DNA from: Atractiella rhizophila
Taxonomy: Eukaryota
NCBI GenBank assembly: GCA_021432655.1
Contig: MU271244.1
Span: 62,214 to 125,764, forward strand
Direction of reading: 5' to 3'
Length of the DNA stretch: 63,551 nt
The position numbers were made by a program, and so were the translations under genes. Of the stretch, positions 1 to 60,646 are shown piece after piece. The notes beneath the pieces are model-generated. The model was not told where the DNA came from, did not search any database, and saw only the letters and a list, made by a program, of their open reading frames with translations. The stretch's first letter is position 1, and each line of letters opens with the position of its first letter.

Positions 1-3000
1 GTTCCGAAGAAAGTATATCGACATTTAAGGGACGGAGATGTTCTCATTCTGAATCGTCAACCCACTCTTCATAAGCCCAGTATGATGTGTCATGTTGCGA
101 AGGTCTTGACCGGAGAAAAGACAATTCGAATGCATTACGCCAATTGGTCTGCACTCCATATCTTTCCCTGATACCTATTTCCTGAAGATGATTTTAGCAA
201 TTCATATAATGCCGACTTCGATGGAGACGAAATGAACATGCACTTCCCTCAAAACGTCATTGCTCAAGCTGAAGCTCGCCTCATCGCCAATACAGATAAC
301 CAATACCTCGTTCCGACGTCGGGAGGTCCGATCCGTGGCCTCATCCAGGACCATATTGTTGCTGCGGTCTGGATGACAAACAAGGAGACCTTTTTCACTC
401 GTCAGGAGTATTATCAACTCATTTATGGCGCGTTAAGACCGGAATCTGACTACACTGGGGAGGGGAGGATAATCACCTTGCCGCCGACGATTTGGAAACC
501 TCAGAAGCTATGGACTGGAAAGCAAATAGTTCGTTCCTCTTTTACTTATATTAATTCTGGAGCCTCATGTCTTCCACCAGATCTCAACAGTCCTAAGAAA
601 TATCACTCCTCGCAAGTTTAGCGGACTCAACATGTCCTCTGGGACGAAGGTTGAGGCAAAATACTGGGGTCCTGAATCAAAGGAGGACAAGTTCATCATC
701 TCGGATGGCGAACACATCTGCGGTATCCTCGATAAAGCCCAATTTGGAGGCAACGGACTCGTCCATGCCGTGTACGAGGTTTTCGGTGCTTCAGTGGCAG
801 GAAAGTTGCTCAGCATCCTCAGTCGACTCTTCACGAAGTACCTCCAGCATCGAGGGTTCTCNNNNNNNNNNNNNNNNNNNNNNNNNAAAAGCTGAAGCTA
901 GATAAAAAGCTATATCGAGAGCGTCCACGCGCTGAAAGACGTAGTCAAACTAGGGGTCGACTAGGACGGCTCTGGTGTCTGTAGAGCAGTAGCGAAGGTC
1001 GTCGCCGGCACAGCAGCAGCAGCATTAACTGGAAAACGGAGCTGACACGACGGGCAAAGCGTAGCAGCCGTAGCGGCAGAAGTCCCAGGAATAGCAGCAG
1101 TGGAAAAGATGGTTACCCTGCCAGAAGAAGAAGGCGACTCGCAAGCGGAGGACGGCGAAACTCCCCTGCTGGGAAAGGATCTCAACAGGGACTTAAAAAC
1201 CTGAGGGACAAGGCAACTGCGTCGAGGAACAACTACAGCCGAAGTTTTTACCCGTGCTTCGACCACACATCCGACCTCTCTTGACAAAGTCTTAGTTACA
1301 CTTTAAGGAGGTCTATGAGGTGAAGTCCTATCTTCAACTCTACTTACAGCATCTAGGAGCAAGCGGGTAGAAGAGGGACCCTAAATAGCCTGTCGGCAAG
1401 AAGATGCTGTTGCCTGAGTTATTAAACCGACTCTACCTCTCGCCTTCAGAACCACGTTTTAGCAGAGTCAGCTAGGACTAGCAAAACTTGCAGCCCTCCT
1501 TCCTTCTCTGCGTAACAGCCACAAAAACCTCAAACCCTCCGTCAGTACTATTAAAGAGCCTCTGCTCCCTATGGGTTACAGTGTAATCGTCGAGGTTTTG
1601 GACTTCGCCTGAGTTGCACTCTTGCCTTACTTTCTACCTTGCGTGGTCTATTTACTTTCCACAAGTTACAGTAGACGCAGCTGCCAAGGGGGTTGTGATT
1701 TACAGGGAGTCAACAACTGTCTAAATTGACAGCTACTGTGTTGAGTGGAAACTCTCCGGTCGTCCGGCTGACTAAGAGGGCGAAGGTGGTTCGATGCGTA
1801 TATGGCGTGTAGGTCGTATGAAACCTTCCGGCTACCAGCTTAGTAGAAACGGTTGCGGAAAAGGCACTAAAGCGGAGAAAGAAAAAAGAAGCCGAACTCA
1901 TCAAACAATCCTAAGCAGAACTACATCCGAACGCGAAGGCGCATCATAAAGAGTCTGCATGAAGGTTCCATACGGCAACCTAACTTGAAGCTATTTCGAC
2001 AAAGGTAGCTGCTCCTTAGCCCACTGAACTTCTATGAGAAGCGCATTACGGGACGTTAAAGTAGTTATTGAGACGGAACTTCTAGAGACCCAGATATCTT
2101 GACTCGCTCTCTCAGCATCAAGAAACGATGCTTAAGCTTTAGTATGTCGTTCGAAGACGAAACACTGCAGCTCTCTTAGAAGCGGCATTAACTTAACCTC
2201 TTACCAGGATAGCGATAAGGCTTGCCACACCAGCATTACTTGAGCTTAGGGAAGATTTACAAACTACTCTGTAGCAACTTCCATCGGTCTAGCTGATCAA
2301 AACTGCCGCCATAGCTACTCTGGGAGGGCGGGACGGTATGTTACCTTCATCATAAGGACACCGACCTAGGGGCAATTCTTTGCAACGCGTTGTTTTGGTG
2401 GTCGAGCTCCTGCCCAGAGTTTCCGAAACTTTCTGCCCTCCCAGAAAGGTGATTGGTAGCAGCCATGTGCTGCGGGAAGCTCGCGAACGACTGGATTGCT
2501 GCTCCTCTAAACTCTCCGTAACTGTTCTGAAGGAAAGCGAGGGCTTTAGCAGTAATCGACGTAAACTAACGCGCCCTTGTCAAAGCTCTCTGGTCGAGGT
2601 CACGTTACGAACAAGCGGAGACGGGTGTTAGGACGGTATCGACAACTTTATCAGCATAGGTCTGGTCGACTGAAAGACAGCAGGGAGTTTTGAAGGAGGT
2701 AGGAGTGAGCTTCCAAGCAGAGTTTGAGACCCCATAGGGAGAACCGAAACAGATCAGGATGTTTGAATATGTTGCGGAGGTTACAGGCAAGTACTCGAAG
2801 GGGTTCTCAAAAAAAGGAGAAGTAGAGCCGAAGTCCAACTTCATGCTCTAGAAGCTGTGGCGTACTCTTGGGAGCTACGACCTCCATGAAGCACTTCTGG
2901 AGAGGATGCGTGCGCTAGAAGGCGAAATCGTTACTTCCTCTCGTTATAAATACGTCTCCCAGGTACAGTTCGATAAGGATGCTGGCCAATGGTGCAAGAT

Positions 3001-3755
3001 GCAGTTCGAGGTACGCATTACTCCTCTACATAAGTGCTCAAACAGAAGTTGTATCAGCTCGGAGCGAATCAACCTAAACTTCTATTAGTTGGTATCGCTG
3101 AGAAAGCTTGTTCCAAGGCAGTCGTTCGAGCCATTCCGGGAATCGCAAATTGCTACCTAATAGAGCCCGAAAACAAAAATGAGGAGGTAGGCACGCCTAT
3201 ATGTGTTGCATCAATGGCTGACGCTTATTTCAGCGACATCTCTTCACAGAAGGAGCCAACATTCGGGCCTGTTGGGAATTCGCGTTTGGTACTGCAGACT
3301 TGACTAAGCTAATGTCCAACGATATTGCGGCCATACTAGAGACGTACGGAGTTGAAGCAGGTAGAGCTAACATCATAGCGGAGATGCGTGGCATCTTTAA
3401 AGCCTACAAAATCGACGTTGACTTCCGCCATCTTTCTTTGATTGCTGATTATATGGTGCGTTGAAATTCCAAGACAACCAGCTATCTGATCCTTTGTTAG
3501 ACTTCGGAAGGTGGCTTCAAACCTTTTAGTCGACGCGGAATAGCTACAAGCTCCTCCCCTTTTGCGAAGGCGTCCTTTGAGACAACGGCTGACTTCTTGT
3601 CCGAGGCTGTTCTTCATGGCGACTTCGATGATCTACTCAATCCTTCCGCCAATATTGCTATTGGTAAAACTATGAAAGCAGGAACCGGAACTTTTGATCT
3701 TCTCAGTTCTTTCCAGAAAACGGTTAAGGATAAAAAGGAAGAATTCAGTTATTGA
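1..3755 (+). CDS. RPA190: RNA polymerase I largest subunit (5'-partial, multi-exon; middle part present only as mirrored sequence 887-2898)
   Basis: Catalytic [16 protein letters not shown] at ~205-252; [35 protein letters not shown] up to the gap. The reversed block encodes [36 protein letters not shown] and [15 protein letters not shown]. C-terminus has [35 protein letters not shown] and GTGTFD; TGA at 3753-3755. Confidence 0.97.
862..886. other. Assembly gap (25 N)
   Basis: Run of 25 n. Confidence 1.
887..2898. other. Mirror-image (reversed, not complemented) segment holding the middle of RPA1
   Basis: 2898->2865 read backwards equals 828-861 exactly (34 nt). Backward reading continues FSCGVEDLVLQPEAEM...[46 protein letters not shown]. 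Confidence 0.98.
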
Positions 3756-4044
3756 TTCTGATACTTGCTAGCTTCGTTGTTTACTTCGACTGTTCGATTT
3801 TTTATTGCAACCTTTGCAATAATCGGATTAACATATGTTGGATGGATATTGTATGAGGTCTCGATGTAGTAAACTAGTTGATGACATGAGGTGTTAAGCG
3901 TTCTTAACGGAGTTTATGCAGCCAAAGAGGTAATTATGAGGACATTCACCTCGTAAAGCAATGGATGTTAAATATTTTACACAAAACACGAAATACTTGG
4001 CAAAGAGAAAAACCAAGAACGGTCATCAAAAAACACACTGAAGT

Positions 4045-4731
4045 CTAAAAGGCGGTAGAGACGCGCTTCCATGAAGCAGCAACTTTCCTGCCCTTCTCAC
4101 GCTCTTCCGGTTTCACTTGAAACATCACTTGATCGTTCCCTTCAGCCCGTGCCCCACTCTTTGGAAGCCACCAGGAACCATTTTGACTTTGTTTTTGCCT
4201 CTGCTTCTTCGACGGAGAATTTGATGGTATGGGAAGCGATGGTCGACCCGAGCTGAATGACCTCAGCCCCCGCGGGAAAGAATAAACAGGACGACGTACG
4301 CCTCTCCACCCGATTTTGACCAGGGGAACAGTCTCGACACTCGCTTCCTCGACTTCTTCACTTTTTCTTCCGCTTCCTCCTTTTCTTCTGCACTACTACT
4401 CCAAGTTGACTCTGACTTGAACATCGACATGTACAATGAACGTCGTCCTACACGTGGGCTCAGTTCGGGAGAACTGGAGTTGAGGGGAGTGGTAACGGCG
4501 CGGGAAGGAGTGGATGAGTTGCTGACTGGGGTGGCATGAGGGGTGGGAGGGTGCAGGAGAAATGATAGCTGGGAGACATTATAGTCTTGTGATGACGCTA
4601 CCACGGTAGCGACGGAATGAGCGGAAGAATGCAGGAGAGGAGGTGAAACGAACCGTGCAAATGGGACTGAGCGGAACGTATCGCTTGGTGGTGGTTGATG
4701 GAGGAGTGCCTGGAGCGGTTTGAAGCAGCAT
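4045..4731 (-). CDS. Hypothetical Ser/Pro-rich protein (structure uncertain)
   Basis: Low-complexity ORF 4263-4604 plus a possible upstream ATG at 4731; no recognisable domain. Confidence 0.3.
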
Positions 4732-6242
4732 CACTCCACCCTTCGTCATCCCACATATTTGCTCTTATTACTGAATGTCACAGTTCTACTTTCAGCGAAG
4801 CCGCCCTTTTATGAGGGAAGCCATCAGAAACAGTGCACTGGTTACTGAAAAGGATCTCGCCCGCTTATTGAACATTTGAATGGTCATGAATGACTGGCTT
4901 CTGTCAACCTACTTGGCTTGCAATCATAGAACGCATAATGCTGCTTCGTCTCCACTGGAGCCGAACTTTACAATTCAGACCTGCCAGCCAAGCCAGAGGG
5001 CAAATGTGCTCGCGGAGCTTGACCGCAGTCGGAAGAGGACTGGATCCTAAGGAAGAAAGGTTAAAGAATAATATCTCACCAGCTCGCCCACTGACTCACT
5101 TCCCAGAGCCCAAAACTGTAAACTTTTACAGATGTGGCCTTGGCAGCGAAGACGTGTTTTTGGATGGAGTCTTTCACCGAAGTTATGGAAGATGCGAACT
5201 ACAAACACTCAGCACTAGCAGGACTGTGTTCCCGCAATCGGCAATCGTACGATATGAATTTGATTCTGCTCTATGACTTTGGATGAGCGGTGATACAGAA
5301 ACTGTCATTCCACCTCTCAGCATGGTTACAAGTTGTTGTCAACTTGAATCAATTACCAGCTTTAGCCGAGTACGTCTGCGGTATTAGTTTCCTCATGCAT
5401 GACAATGCATAGCAAAACATTAACAATGTCGAAGCAGTAGTGTCAGATGATCTGGTGAACCCTGTTCCAGCTCAATTCAGGGCATGTCTAGCCCTAGACA
5501 TTAGTATTAGTGTTGACCGTCCATGGAAGAAAGGGACGAGCTTTTGTGACTGACAGATGCAGTCTGGTAGGCAGAACGGCGAGGCGTCCTTCATCAGGTT
5601 GGACATATCATGCCTTCACATGCTTTGAGAGTGTCGTCATATAATCTCCATGTGCGTTGAAGAAACTGTATGAACACGAATTTGAGAAAATTCTTAAGCG
5701 AAGACCTAAGGGCCTGCAAACAGGAGAGAGGTGCCTAGCCTTCATGTGTCAACACATCCACTGTGAGGCACGCTTCAGCCATACCTCTCCTTCCATCAGC
5801 ACAGTTCGCATAACGCTAGATAAATGGTCACTTGAAGTATAGAGAAACAAGGCTCACCTCACCGAGTCGGACGAGAGTTTCTACAACTCAAACGACTCAA
5901 TTCCCCATAATCTTTCCCCATGTTCTCCTTCATTGACTCTGGCCTTTTCATTTCTCATAACAAACCAAGCGAACCTCTTTTGAACCCCTTGAACGTTGTT
6001 CGCAATCGTCAGTTTCACAATAAAAGAAACCATGCCCGAAATGATGCCTGGAAGCACGAGGCACGAGCTCGGAAGGATTCTGTACTATAGTCACATTAAT
6101 TCAAAAGCATTGACAAGACTGTGAATCTATTTATCCTAGGATATTGTACAAACTTCGGTACATAAGCAATGCAATGACAAAGTGACAATGGTCTCTCTCT
6201 AGCATGATCTGATATCCACAGTTTGAACTTAAATCCGGGAGC

Positions 6243-13045: not shown

Positions 13046-14727
13046 ATGGAGCAATGTAGCAGGCTGACTTTCAGCCAGGGATTCATCCTCGGACAAGCAT
13101 CGATGTGAGCATTATTTCATACAGGATTTGAAAAGAGGGGTAATGAGAGGTTCAGCCTTATAATTGCCATTCTTTTTATTCGCTATGTAATTTTCGAATC
13201 GTCTACTTCTCAGAAACCGGCAGTCGTCAAGCCGGTCGCTGTCAAAGCCAGAACTTCTTCACGAAAAAAGCCACCTCCGACGCCTGTAATGCCTCCTCAT
13301 CTCAAACCGCTCTATCACCTGCCTTCATTTCCTTCACTTCTCCCTCCTCCCTCAAGTGAATCCACCACCTGGCTATCCTATCTCATCGCTCAGGCAGTTC
13401 TCTCCTACAGGCACCTGGTCTGGTCCTCTCCTGGGAAGGAGAATGGAGGGCGGGAATGGATAGAAGAGATTTTGAATAGAGGGAAGACGAATAATAGCAA
13501 TGCGGAAGACGGTTTCATCAGTCTCGACTAGATTTATGTGAAGGACGTAGAGTTAGGAGAGCGCACACCAAGGGTCACGGGAGCCAAAGTTGTTGACCGT
13601 GAAGAGAAGGATGGTCGAGTGGTGCGGTTCCTTGATTCTCCTCACCCCTTAACGGCGAACTGATGAAGGATACAGAAGGTAAATCTCTCCGTTACTTACC
13701 AAGATCGCGTCTCTATCTCGCTTGAAACGAAAGTTGTTATGAACTTCCCCCGCCCACGTTTCGCGGTACTTCCAGTCGAACTTTCTTTGAATCTTGTTGA
13801 ATTCCAAGGCGTGGTACGTCTACATATATCCTCTTAAGCAATAGTTAATGTCGTCAAAAGCTGTCTCTGGAAATCACTCCTCCAGATTCACCACTGACTG
13901 CGACTGTCTCTCCCACGAACGCGCCTACTCACATTGGACCGACTGTCAAAATCTCTCTTCTTCCCGATTTCCAACTCTCCCTCATCTCGCGAAGTTTACT
14001 CGGTAGTAAAGCCAAATTAATGGACATTCCGAAGGTCGAACAACTCATCGTTGGGCGAATACGTTCAGTTATTGTCGATCGGTATGCCAGGCTCATGTCC
14101 ACAAAATGTAGGCTGATTTGATGATGAAGGTATGTCAACTCGAGCATAACGATCGGTCTCCCTTTTCCAGCACCGCGATCACCACCTTCCTCATCTTCTT
14201 CAACCTCTTCAGACGAGGGAGATGAAGATCCTGTGCCCGAAAGTGACTATGTGATCATCCGCCCTCCTCCCTCACCACACCCTGAATCTGTCCCACCTTC
14301 AAGCGACGATGTCGAGGATTCTGGTTATCCGGAAGCCGATGTTGATCCCAGTCTGTACGAGTATAGCCCCGCGTTCTTAGGAGGAAGTGGACGCGTTGGT
14401 CTTGGTCTCGGAACAAGCCTTGGGATGACTTCCTCCCTTGCGAGTCTCGACAGTATCGGGGTTGGGAGAGGACCGTACAGAAGCAAAAGGATGAGCGGGG
14501 GTAACTTGGCAGCTAGCACACCCAACCTCTCCCTCACTCATAGAGGAAGAGAGAAGGAACGGGAGAGAGAGAAAGAGAGAGAGAAAGAACGGTTGGATGA
14601 GTTACGGTTGCCCGGTGAATATCACAGCCGAATTCTTCAACGATCGCCAGCTTCACAGGCGCGCACAGAAGAACTGCCTCAGGAACGTACTTGGACCGCG
14701 ACTGGGAGAGGCATTGGTATGCGATGA
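13046..14727 (+). CDS. MMM1: ERMES subunit Mmm1 (SMP domain) with in-frame TAG at 13529-13531; start approximate
   Basis: N-terminal anchor TFSQGFILGQAS..LFIRYVIF; ESTTWLSYLIAQ; VVMNFPRPRFAVLPVELSL; SLLGSKAKLMDIPKVEQLI; long Ser/Pro and REKE tail. GT-AG introns intact. Confidence 0.88.
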
Positions 14728-15983: not shown

Positions 15984-17332
15984 TATCTCATCGCTCAGGC
16001 AGTTCTCTCCTACAGGCACCTGGTCTGGTCCTCCCCTGGGAAGGAGAATGGAGGGCGGGAATGGATAGAAGAGATTTTGAATAGAGGGAAGACGAATAAT
16101 AGCAATGCGGAAGACGGTTTCATCAGTCTCGACTAGATTTATGTGAAGGACGTAGAGTTAGGAGAGCGCACACCAAGGGTCACGGGAGCCAAAGTTGTTG
16201 ACCGTGAAGAGAAGGATGGTCGAGTGGTGCGGTTCCTTGATTCTCCTCACCCCTTAACGGCGAACTGATGAAGGATACAGAAGGTAAATCTCTCCGTTAC
16301 TTACCAAGATCGCGTCTCTATCTCGCTTGAAACGAAAGTTGTTATGAACTTCCCCCGCCCACGTTTCGCGGTACTTCCAGTCGAACTTTCTTTGAATCTT
16401 GTTGAATTCCAAGGCGTGGTACGTCTACATATATCCTCTTAAGCAATAGTTAATGTCGTCAAAAGCTGTCTCTGGAAATCACTCCTCCAGATTCACCACT
16501 GACTGCGACTGTCTCCCCCACGAACGCGCCTACTCACATTGGACCGACTGTCAAAATCTCTCTGCTTCCCGATTTCCAACTCTCCCTCATCTCGCGAAGT
16601 TTACTCGGTAGCAAAGCCAAATTAATGGACATTCCGAAGGTCGAACAACTCATCGTTGGGCGAATACGTTCAGTTATTGTCGATCGGTATGCCAGGCTCA
16701 TGTCCACAAAATGTAGGCTGATTTGATGATGAAGGTATGTCAACTCGAGCATAACGATCGGTCTCCCTTTTCCAGCCCCGCGATCACCACCTTCCTCATC
16801 TTCTTCAACCTCTTCAGACGAGGGAGATGAAGATCATGTGCCCGAAAGTGACTATGTGATCATCCGCCCTCCTCCCTCACCACACCCTGAATCCGTCCCA
16901 CCTTCAAGCGACGACGTCGAGGATTCTGGTTATCCGGAAGCCGATGTTGATCCCAGTCTGTACGAGTATAGCCCCGCGTTCTTAGGAGGAAGTGGACGCG
17001 TTGGTCTTGGTCTCGGAACAAGCCTTGGGATGACTTCCTCCCTTGCGAGTCTCGACAGTATCGGGGTTGGGAGAGGACCGTACAGAAGCAAAAGGATGAG
17101 CGGGGGTAACTTGGCAGCTAGCACACCCAACCTCTCCCTCACTCATAGAGGAAGAGAGAAGGAACGGGAGAGAGAGAAAGAGAGAGAGAAAGAACGGTTG
17201 GATGAGTTACGGTTGCCCGGTGAATATCACAGCCGAATTCTTCAACGATCGCCAGCTTCACAGGCGCGCACAGAAGAACTGCCTCAGGAACGTACTTGGA
17301 CCGCGACTGGGAGAGGCATTGGTATGCGATGA
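15984..17332 (+). pseudogene. MMM1: 5'-truncated second copy of MMM1 (also has the TAG, 16134-16136)
   Basis: Starts at YLIAQAVLSY and lacks the promoter and TM anchor. Confidence 0.8.
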
Positions 17333-44286: not shown

Positions 44287-46203
44287 ATGGGACAGGACGA
44301 GCACTCGCAAGGTGCAGAACCGGACGTTAGCATTCAGGAAGTGCCGTTTAGAGAGGGAGAGAGGAAGTTTAGAGTCCTTACCTTCAACTGTTGGTGTGTT
44401 TCACGTTCAAACCCATCCGTGTACCATCTTCTGTTTTCAGCAGTTTTTTCTTTTCCTGCCAACCGATTATCTGGCGTACCGTGTCACGAGCAAGCTGTTG
44501 ACTGTGGCTGCTCACTTCCCTGTCGTAGGAGGAGAACAAGTTGACTTGACGTGCAAATCTGACAGTGCGGAAACTGACTGCCCTCAATAGGGGATTGAAA
44601 TATGTCTCTCGCCAGCGTCGTCAACGGATACACGCAATAGCAGAATACATCGTCTCTTCTTCTTCTGCTAATGCCTCGTCACGGCCGTCGCATTCTACTT
44701 CTTCAGGTTCAGGTTCCGCTGCAGTAATAGATGAGGGAGACGGTGGATATGACCTCGTCGCCTTGCAGGAACTCTGGTGCGAGGAGGACTGGTTGACAAT
44801 ATCTACTCGGGCCAAATCCGTTGGCTTGAAACATGGGCGATGGTTCTACAGGTTCGTTGTGCAGCTGCTTGGAATATGGAATATGGATTGACTGCTTTCG
44901 CTTAAAGTGGTGCTCTTGGTTCAGGTCTCGCAATATTGACTCGTCATCGTCTGCTCTCATCGTCCATCCTCTCTTATCCTCTCAACGGTAACCCCCTCCA
45001 TGTCGCAGAAGGAGATTGGCATGTTGGAAAAGCGGCAGGTTCGGTCATTATTTCGCTGGACATCCCATCCCCTTCTTCCTCTACTTCGAAAGGGGAAAGC
45101 ACCAAGGTGGAGCTTGAATTGATCAATACACACTTTTATGCGCCTCATGGAGACGAAGGTGCACACGTGGAGGAGTGGAAGCGAGCGCATCGGATAGCAC
45201 AGTGTTGGGAACTGGGCAAAATCGTGCGATCTGCCTCTGAACGGGGTAGAGGCGTGATCGTTGTACGTCTATCTTCTCCCCTATGTCCTTCGACGATTGA
45301 TACTCATCGTATTCTGGTCTCTCAAAGACTGGAGACCTCAATTCGCCTCCACATTCACACGTCATCCGCTTCCTCCTCGCCCACGGCCACCTCTCTGATT
45401 CCTTCCCCGTCCTAAACCCCCAAGCTCCCCATCCCTCACGCTCTTCCTCCGAAGCCGTCCGTCTAAACGGCGTAACTTGCGACTCCCCCTTGAACTCGTT
45501 TAGTCGGTATAAGGTCTTTCCAGAGTGGGTTAGGAAGGAGGGAGGCAAGAGATTGGACTATGTCCTCTTTCGCAATTCAGGCTTGTTCGTGCCCAAGGAA
45601 GAGACGAGGAAGGACGTGGTCGGAAGCGTGAACCTGGAACCGAAATGGACCAAGGTGGTGCTCACCGAACCTGTTCCGGGGACGGGGGGCATGAGTTATT
45701 CAGACCATTTCGGCGTCGAGGTAGTATTTGGGGTCTCGCTTCTCACGACTTCAGCAAGCTCGACAAAGCCTTCCTTCCCAGGAGGTGAAGCTGTTCCATC
45801 CTCCGAGCCTCTCTCAGGACCAGGTCGACCCTCTGCCCTCACACCCGAACTGATGAGCACCTCCTTGAACGCTCTCGCCAGATCCTTCTCTTCCTCCTCA
45901 AAGGCTGCAAACACCCAGATGTCCCTCTTCTACCTTGCTATTGTATCCATCCCCCTCGTCGCCATAGCCGCCTCCTTCCAGCCTAACAAAGCCTTCAACT
46001 GGCTATTTGTACTCGTTGGTGTCGGAATAGGATGGGGAGGAACAACGATGCTTTATGCGGGCTTCATCGGAGGAAGGTGGGAGAGGAGAGCGCTGAGAAA
46101 CGTCATTGCTGAGATGGAAATTGAAAGAGAGAGGCTGTGGGTGGCTAGGGAAGAGGAAGAGGAAGATGGTAGATTCAGTTTTGAGCCGAGAATTTGGGGT
46201 TGA
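44287..46203 (+). CDS. ISC1: Inositol phosphosphingolipid phospholipase C (neutral sphingomyelinase family)
   Basis: RVLTFNCWGLKYVS, YDLVALQELW, SGLAILTR, GDWHVGK, NTHFYA, GDLNS, TCDSPLNS, GKRLDYV, SYSDHFGVE; two C-terminal TM helices. Confidence 0.92.
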
Positions 46204-58361: not shown

Positions 58362-58608
58362 AAGACAGGGAGTGTATGACTTGTCCCACCGTAATTGTTG
58401 TTAAATAGGAGAAGTTGGTTAATACTTAATTCCCCATGTAACCTCGACTATGTTTTGTTCATCACTTGAGCCCAATTGATGAGCTTACAGAACGACATGA
58501 GTTTGCATGAGAACCCAAAGAAGAACATGAGAGACGACTGATACTCCATGGAAGACGCTTGTGCTAACTGCGGTAGTTGAAGATAGGCCATACTCATCTT
58601 AGACAAAC

Positions 58609-60621
58609 TTATTCAGAAGTTGAACCTTCGTTTTCGTAGGCTTCTAGCCTGGCAGCTTGCCTAACATGCAACATGAAATTAGCCATGTTTCCTTATGGTG
58701 GATAGGAGAGACGAACAACTCTTTGTGGGCCTCTTGCCACCGCTGCAGCTTGGCAATTTCGTGCACATTAAAACCGAAGATTTTCGGCCTGTCGCACGCA
58801 AGATCAACTTGGATGCCAAATTGCGAGACAACCGAACCTGTAGATAGATACCACGCCATTATTCTTCCCAGCAGTGCTGCTTCCCGCCTGATTTCCGCCA
58901 GAGCCAGAGTTGGGAACGTGTTTAGGAGGGACCATGTGAGGGTACATCATGAACAGCATGTGAGGAAAGGTAGTCCCAAAGTATGCTCCATCGATGCTTC
59001 CATGTCGGGAACTCTTGGGTGAATAGATATCCTCACATCGAGGGCAATAGAGCTTGACGGCCTTCTGATACGAGATATCGGAGAGTCCGACAGGAAGGAG
59101 GGGTTGACCGTAGCAGAGAACGCGGGGACAGCGTCCGAAATCAGCTTTCTTGTATTTCTCAATCTAAAGTTCTTTTAATCGGCGCCCCTAAAAAGACAGA
59201 TGGGGGTGTTAGGTGGTTATGAGGAGGTTTAGCTGTTTGGAAACCATAGAAAGTCGTTGCTCTCCGACTTCGAGCAAACCTCCTCTTTCCCTACGCTTTA
59301 GCAGTAAGGAACCACTTCCACACTAGAGAGGAAGAGAGTAACCCTTGCGTACCCGAGGAAACGTTATCTCTTTACAGTGGGAAGTTGAACTTATACTCAT
59401 CGTCTCTCGGTCACTAAGTCCACGACAGGACTCACGGTAGACGTTCCTGCTTCCGTCTAGTAGGTCCAAAAGGCACATCAGCTATTTATCTGGTTACCTA
59501 TGGGAGAATGTACAGTCTAACTCACGCCTGTTTTCGACACGGGATAGAGTAAGGGCTGTGGTGCTAGTCCCGTTGTAGTTCTCCTAACAAAGAATCGATC
59601 TTTCTCTCTCGTTGTCGACTCGTGTAGATAACCCGTGAGACCTTCCAGTACTTCAACACCCTAGGACACGACCATTACAAACCGCTTCGCAGCTCTTCCG
59701 CCGTATTTTAGTTCTTCAAGAAATACACTGTTCTTCTGGTGTTCGAAAGGTACGCCTCGTCTGTTCGTAACTGCTCTAGCTCTGTACTTGGTGGTTATTG
59801 CGGAACTGGAGAAAGAGGGGGTTAAAGAATTGTTGCCGCGCGCTGGGTTCTTCGCTTTCCAGCTCGTCCATTCCTAAAGCCGTAGACGGAGGAGTTTTTT
59901 ACCTAACTTTAACTACTTCTCGTCTGGTTCCTTCTATCAGCATGGAAAAGTTGCAGACAGATAGCTCCCCTCGATAAGAGTAAGAGGGACCTCATCTTCT
60001 TTGAAATTTTGGACTGGGTTTCTTGCCGCGAGGCCTTTTTAGGAGCGTTTGCTTCCTTTTGTTTGCTTCTATAGGGTTGAGTAGAACTCTTGAATCTGTA
60101 ATTCCGATCGGGATTCGCCCATAGTCTTGTTCTAGTCTTGCTAGTTGTCGTGCTCCTTCTAGTCCTATATTAGTCAGACATGGAGAGATAAACACCAAAC
60201 CTAGTTTCTATTACCCTCTACACTTCACCTACTTGAAAGCTGCCCCAGACTAAGTCTGATGTGGTGGTCGACCTAAAGAACCAAATACGTTTGGTTTCCT
60301 TTACTCATGAAAAACACTGCAACTGCTCCTCATATAGGAGCTGGCGAAGTTAGACTGCCCCGACTTACGCCTTCAAGTAGTAATATCAGTTCGAAACCTT
60401 GAGTATTGCCTAAGAAACCCACGTAACTGAGGAAAAGGGGACGCCAATGTTAGTGACTAACACCCTCGTCTTCTCCTCGACTCGCTGCTAAGTGCCCTTT
60501 GTCAGCTCTCGGTTCGTGCAGTAGAAATGCCAGAATAAGTACGTGCGAAATATCAATGGCAGGCTCCTAACGTCTTTTACCGTGCAGAGGTGTCTAAAAT
60601 ATAATTAACCTTGACTTTCGT
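58609..60621 (-). CDS. CKB1: Casein kinase II regulatory beta subunit (5' half lies in the mirrored segment; start unresolved)
   Basis: True minus strand: [66 protein letters not shown]. Complement-only reading of ~60240-60580: [60 protein letters not shown]. Confidence 0.95.
59167..60621. other. Second mirror-image (reversed, not complemented) segment
   Basis: CK2-beta exons read only as the complement of the + strand taken left to right. After flipping, an intron is rebuilt across the junction (gcacgt...aactgaaagca|tag). Confidence 0.95.
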
Positions 60622-60646
60622 NNNNNNNNNNNNNNNNNNNNNNNNN
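60622..60646. other. Assembly gap (25 N)
   Basis: Run of 25 n. Confidence 1.

Follow-up and report, generated by a model that had tools for sequence, protein, structure and literature searches.

We determined that two stretches of the analysed window, the 63,551 nt of Atractiella rhizophila contig MU271244.1 considered here, are printed in mirror order, that is, reversed without being complemented, and that each of them adjoins a run of exactly 25 Ns. The first of these blocks carries the middle of the RNA polymerase I gene RPA1, and the second carries residues ~1-112 of casein kinase II beta. Both are very probably an error of assembly software, introduced by a flank-extension gap filler, presumably of the PBJelly type. 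The first-pass annotation had taken the mirror in RPA1 for an assembly artefact rather than for the DNA of the organism. This call is supported by contigs of public sequencing runs, which carry mirror-order letters past position 861 and into position 2898, and by RPA1 itself, which becomes colinear and in frame once the block is un-mirrored.

The features on which the following sections draw, with the evidence for each in brackets, are these (positions are those of the window; the mirrored blocks, the N runs and the features inside the blocks have no strand assigned):

1-861, + strand: left flank, RPA1 exons, residues ~655-910 of the homologue P0001 (tblastn; Pfam Rpb1 domains 2 and 3 on 196-621)
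529-580, + strand: intron in the left flank, GT..AG, with the joint 528->581 (spliced contig in run X3)
829-861, + strand: repeated 33 nt, mirrored at 2897->2865 (mirror-repeat scan; boundary from run contigs)
862-886: first 25-N run (contigs pass from 861 straight into mirror-order letters)
887-2897: mirrored block 1, 2011 nt (tblastn, motif translations, loose ends of run contigs, Markov scans, Pfam limits)
1688-1692: run of five Gs, apparently one G longer than the conserved motif after an intron allows (splice sites and conservation)
2148-2153: frame break with no space for an intron, a probable indel error (the frame changes between two tblastn segments separated by 4 nt)
2898-3755, + strand: right flank, C-terminal exons of RPA1 up to the stop codon (tblastn; spliced contigs in X3 and X4)
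3009-3055, 3185-3231 and 3455-3499, + strand: introns in the right flank, GT..AG (spliced contigs in X3 and X4)
58719-59163, - strand: C-terminal half of casein kinase II beta, as printed (Pfam CK_II_beta, profile positions 90-169; tblastn)
~59165-60621: mirrored block 2 (Markov change point 59163-60621; tblastn with 4 of 4 homologues; cross-validated scan)
60226-60595: residues ~1-112 of casein kinase II beta, in the plain complement read from left to right (tblastn)
60622-60646: second 25-N run (adjoins the far end of block 2)

Plain reversal recovers the middle of RPA1

Full-length RPA1 homologues were fetched with the left-flank exon; of 6363 candidates, 5944 reached E<=0.001. Among the best 120 of these, the top matches belong to Pucciniomycotina yeasts (Microbotryomycetes) and to rust fungi, with identities of 72-82%, and none of them is near-identical. 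By these matches the organism is a member of the Pucciniomycotina that lacks a close relative in the protein collection. When four of the homologues (P0001, P0004, P0018 and P0039) were used as tblastn queries, all four failed to produce a single hit in block 1 as printed, on either strand. Read from 2897 to 887 without complementing, however, the same letters give the + strand of RPA1, residues ~900-1549, and P0001 matches this reading in three segments: residues 900-1147 (66.5% identity over 248 aa), 1149-1283 and 1285-1549 (E 8e-152). A homology search of the flipped block with an Rpa190-type protein was the check that the first-pass annotation had proposed, and its claim that the middle of the RNA polymerase I gene is written backwards without complementation is borne out, as the tblastn matches appear only after flipping. 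The RPA1 motifs, with introns between them, that it had reported for the flipped block were recovered as well, all five of the named peptides being found in reversed, uncomplemented translations.

The un-mirrored block takes in the last part of Rpb1 domain 3, domain 4 and the larger share of domain 5, and with them the bridge helix and the trigger loop; on P0001, Pfam places domain 3 at residues 738-916, domain 4 at 991-1068 and domain 5 at 1075-1723. Residues 655-910 and 1550-1773 of P0001 sit on the flanks as printed, and after un-mirroring residues 655-1773 are covered colinearly, with Rpb1 domains 2-5 in order; the window begins within the gene, and domain 1 lies outside the view. Both junctions are crossed by single tblastn segments: the left one in frame by a segment in the scripted join that leads from window position 581 to 2153 (334 aa, 63% identity), and the right one, provided that T2898 is kept, by a segment that spans residues 1305-1594 of P0004.

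The printed orientation had been described as containing no sensible open reading frame. This has to be qualified, since block 1 as printed contains frames between stop codons as long as 113 aa, but those that were tested have no Pfam family: none was found at E<=0.01 in the printed-orientation frames of either block (five tested from block 1, three from block 2).

A chromosomal inversion, or a mis-oriented contig, shares with block 1 an order that is flipped with respect to the flanks and a gene that is broken. Such an inversion is a reverse complement, though, and its genes are visible on the other strand, whereas block 1 gave no hits on both printed strands. A methodological parallel exists as well, as alignment studies reportedly use reversed (uncomplemented) genomes as null controls (e.g. 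PMC9004415 and 10.1101/2025.03.14.643190). The blocks have undergone the same transformation, in which composition is kept and homology is destroyed; the control is deliberate, however, while the blocks found here came into a deposited assembly by accident.

Public sequencing runs carry the un-mirrored order across the junctions of block 1

A search with the 10 kb to the right of block 1 yielded 24 public runs, and the contigs of the four best (X1-X4, from at most three samples) were placed on window positions 1-6000. The match between contigs and window stops at 861 in three of the four runs and starts at 2898 in all four. Beyond these limits the contigs continue in loose ends of 96-1543 letters, of which 30 letters at each end were compared. 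The 30-letter consensus following 861 is identical in X1, X2 and X3, and the one preceding 2898 is identical in X1-X4. Both are the mirror of printed letters, namely of 2864->2835 and of 916->887, with 30 of 30 letters identical in each case, and both strings are absent from both strands of the printed window. No single listed contig spans the whole of block 1; the depth is 0 in the bins covering 1001-2800 in all four runs, an absence of contig cover that we did not count as evidence.

The contigs of X3 and X4 skip the GT..AG introns at 529-580, 3009-3055, 3185-3231 and 3455-3499 and look like RNA. As these runs are spliced, the transcript, too, carries the mirror (that is, the normal) order.

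Compared letter by letter, the runs and the window flanks disagree at roughly 0.4-1% of positions (seven letters in the 669 nt of 193-861, seven in the 1613 nt of 2898-4510), and these differences, most of which are transitions, are common to X1-X3. Such shared differences indicate that the runs probably come from another strain and are not the assembly's own reads. Public sequence data, probably of another strain, thus support the un-mirrored order across both junctions of block 1.

Further along the same region, spliced contigs of X3 skip 49-61 nt at 4252-4302, 4597-4654, 5301-5357 and 5492-5554. The skipped pieces end in CT..AC or CT..GC and are introns of one or more minus-strand genes downstream of RPA1. 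One contig contains an 'opposite strands' joint at 4580/4772.

The overlap at the first gap and the corrected coordinates

The window contains two N runs, at 862-886 and at 60622-60646, each of exactly 25 Ns. To the left of the first run, the letters 828-861 are identical to the reverse reading of 2898->2865 in 34 of 34 positions. A mirror-repeat scan of all 63,551 bases (k=20) yielded four diagonals, of which this is the sole match that is not of the (GA)n type, and it is therefore no chance feature. The other three diagonals stem from a GA-rich, self-mirrored tract of 21 nt, present in two copies 2.6 kb apart (14563-14583 and 17168-17188).

The 34-nt repeat reported by the first-pass annotation is accurate as regards identity, but the true overlap amounts to 33 nt, the 34th base being coincidental. 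Likewise, the rejoining of the forward exon at 2899 with a discrepancy of 1 nt proved to be a coordinate slip, because the run contigs align from 2898 and the frame is continuous with T2898. Taken together, the start of the contig alignments at 2898 and the in-frame join with T2898 set the block at 887-2897 and the overlap at 33 nt. The true neighbours are accordingly 887 and 2898 at one end of the block and 2864 and 861 at the other, with 2865-2897 duplicating 829-861. The first 25-N run hides no missing sequence.

Biological mirror repeats are H-DNA-forming homopurine/homopyrimidine tracts. Like the overlap described here, they give an identical reading forwards and backwards along a single strand. 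However, the GA mirror tracts of this window are low-complexity sequences of about 20 nt, whereas complex coding sequence makes up the match between 829-861 and 2897-2865, and the block itself consists of 2 kb of coding DNA. An H-DNA mirror repeat as the identity of the block was rejected on this ground.

A second mirrored block lies in casein kinase II beta

To score the window independently of homology, we used an order-4 Markov model that compares forward with mirror order and was trained on the window itself with both strands pooled. Across the 63.5 kb, the scan returned only two long mirror segments: 852-2739 (78 bits) and 59163-60621 (88 bits). In a two-fold cross-validation with windows of 500 nt, three of 110 held-out windows fell below 0 (minimum -1.0), while all 12 block evaluations did. 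Two short mirror-leaning segments, 45451-45539 and 58562-58665, scored 10-12 bits, which is at noise level, and were discarded.

The second segment falls in the gene for casein kinase II beta, for which 1182 homologues were obtained at E<=1e-20 among 1413 candidates and four were used as tblastn queries. With all four queries, residues 113 onward match the printed window, on its minus strand and descending from 59163, and residues ~1-112 match in the mirror reading only. Homology is therefore missing on both printed strands and restored by plain reversal in block 2 as it is in block 1.

On its right, block 2 directly abuts the second 25-N run. Its left limit is uncertain within about 35 nt (~59165-59200, with the Markov change point at 59163); a splice acceptor as printed at 59164-59169 puts this limit slightly to the right of 59163. 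The block is the mirror, in place, of the rightward extension of a contig that ends near 59165-59200.

We asked whether the far end of block 2 overlaps, in mirror order, with the sequence from 60647 onward, as block 1 does at the first gap. The highest local score, 20, fell within the shuffled background (mean 21.6, maximum 30), while the positive control, the overlap of block 1, scored 68. Since no overlap is found past the second N run, this gap may be real and sequence may be missing there.

If the un-mirrored letters 60581-60621 are joined to ~59200-59164, the casein kinase II beta intron so formed, which follows the conserved end of the exon, would start with GC and not with GT. This would point to a GC-AG intron or, alternatively, to a wrong base in the patch.

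Frame breaks are found inside the blocks

Three frame breaks were encountered in the two blocks, two in block 1 and one in block 2. At 2148-2153, where one tblastn segment gives way to another, the change of frame takes place within 4 nt. The other break in block 1 concerns the trigger loop: an intron of 51 nt with canonical GT..AG ends, which in mirror order extends from window position 1747 to 1697, precedes the run of five Gs at 1688-1692, and the trigger-loop motif that follows is one base out of frame, with one G fewer restoring the frame. Judged by splice sites and conservation, the run therefore seems to contain an extra G, in agreement with the first-pass annotation, which had called it one G too long. 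In block 2, all four casein kinase II beta queries show a break at 60311/60312, within the mirrored N-terminal exon, where the patch probably contains an indel error.

No frame break was seen in the flanking exons of RPA1, where tblastn segments shift frame only across intron-sized gaps, four of these introns being confirmed by contigs. The idea of an unpolished patch would fit the two plus one frame-breaking indels, which may be due to less accurate source reads.

Origin of the mirrored blocks

At both N runs of the window the arrangement is the same: the block is seamless on the side of the contig that it extends and meets the Ns on its other side. In addition, the far end of block 1 overlaps the opposite contig by 33 nt, and the gap was nonetheless left open. 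These observations, a seamless contig side, Ns opposite, an overlap that was not closed and a second block of the same kind, lend indirect support to the earlier proposal of a gap-filling error at a 25-N placeholder.

PBJelly leaves exactly 25 Ns after overfilling a gap. For this program, a stretch of Ns counts as a gap from a length of 25 upwards, a long-read consensus is used to extend contig ends, flank extension shrinks the gap, and gaps whose extensions have no identifiable overlap are termed 'overfilled' and stay open, according to passages of its description (English et al. 2012, PMC3504050); the default minimum gap size is given as 25 in a further study (PMC6240028). The blocks described here, extensions of ~1.5-2 kb with indel errors and a seamless join to one flank, are PBJelly-like, and we infer that a program of this type was used for this assembly. 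In one respect they differ, in that the same passages describe no reversal without complementation (PMC3504050).

Under the reading that we favour, a gap-extension step would (i) build a consensus from a contig end into the gap, using source reads less accurate than those behind the flanks; (ii) reverse this consensus where a reverse complement, or no change at all, was due; and (iii) splice it in place. Block 1 would then be the leftward continuation of the contig that starts at 2898, inserted in reverse. The gap would have stayed unclosed, with its minimal 25 Ns, either because the overlap faced the wrong way or for lack of any search for one.

Among the alternatives, a different bookkeeping error fares best, although we regard it as unlikely. 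The submitters may have oriented contigs or patches with a script that used 'reverse' but had no complement step, or a slip may have occurred in manual finishing, and either would have the same outcome, a reversed and uncomplemented stretch. The sequence alone cannot name the program, and search listings of the literature yielded no description of a gap filler that reverses without complementing, the entries found being either unrelated or studies in which reversed sequence serves as an intended control. However, a whole contig placed in the wrong orientation would have gaps on both sides, whereas both blocks have a gap on one side only; at the joint with its neighbour, each block has no base lost or duplicated; and frame-breaking indels were seen in the blocks and not in the flanks. 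This confinement of the indels points to a separate, presumably less accurate source that would have been spliced onto contig ends.

It is more doubtful still that the window was altered after assembly, by a planted test block or by file corruption, and that the public record is correct. Nothing specific speaks for such an alteration, and the 33-nt overlap, the 25-N runs, the indels restricted to the blocks and the opposite directions of the two extensions resemble a genuine by-product of gap extension. Finally, that the DNA of the organism truly carries a 2-kb mirror-image copy of the middle of RPA1, for which the printed sequence alone speaks, is so improbable as to be negligible, since an essential single-copy gene would be destroyed, the contigs of four runs, spliced RNA included, show the normal order, a second block lies at the other 25-N run, reversal without complementing is impossible given strand polarity, and no replication, repair or recombination chemistry is, to our knowledge, able to reverse a strand in this manner.

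Returning to an error of gap extension, we consider it possible, though at somewhat less than an even chance, that the reversal is systematic, with the gap-extension program, or a version of it, writing some of its extensions backwards and uncomplemented. If so, many 25-N gaps in this assembly would be flanked by mirror blocks of 1-2 kb, as might gaps in other public assemblies from the same pipeline, and genes would be silently broken in a way that evades quality control based on BLAST or on the detection of inversions.

Implications for the assembly and the organism

The mirrored blocks are a quality-control warning for this assembly. As both of the 25-N gaps in this one window are accompanied by a mirrored block, the whole assembly may be affected. 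The error is hard to detect because ordinary homology searches test only the two real strands. The forward-versus-mirror Markov score offers a cheap detector, which found both blocks with three marginal negatives among 110 windows and could be applied to whole assemblies.

For the organism, the mirrored blocks are no biological feature, and nothing biologically new is contained in them. RPA1, which is essential in yeast, and casein kinase II beta are almost certainly ordinary in this species, and the real genes appear intact save for the small indel errors. Gene callers would presumably see both as truncated or split, and claims of gene loss or of pseudogenes that are drawn from this assembly would be wrong for two conserved genes.
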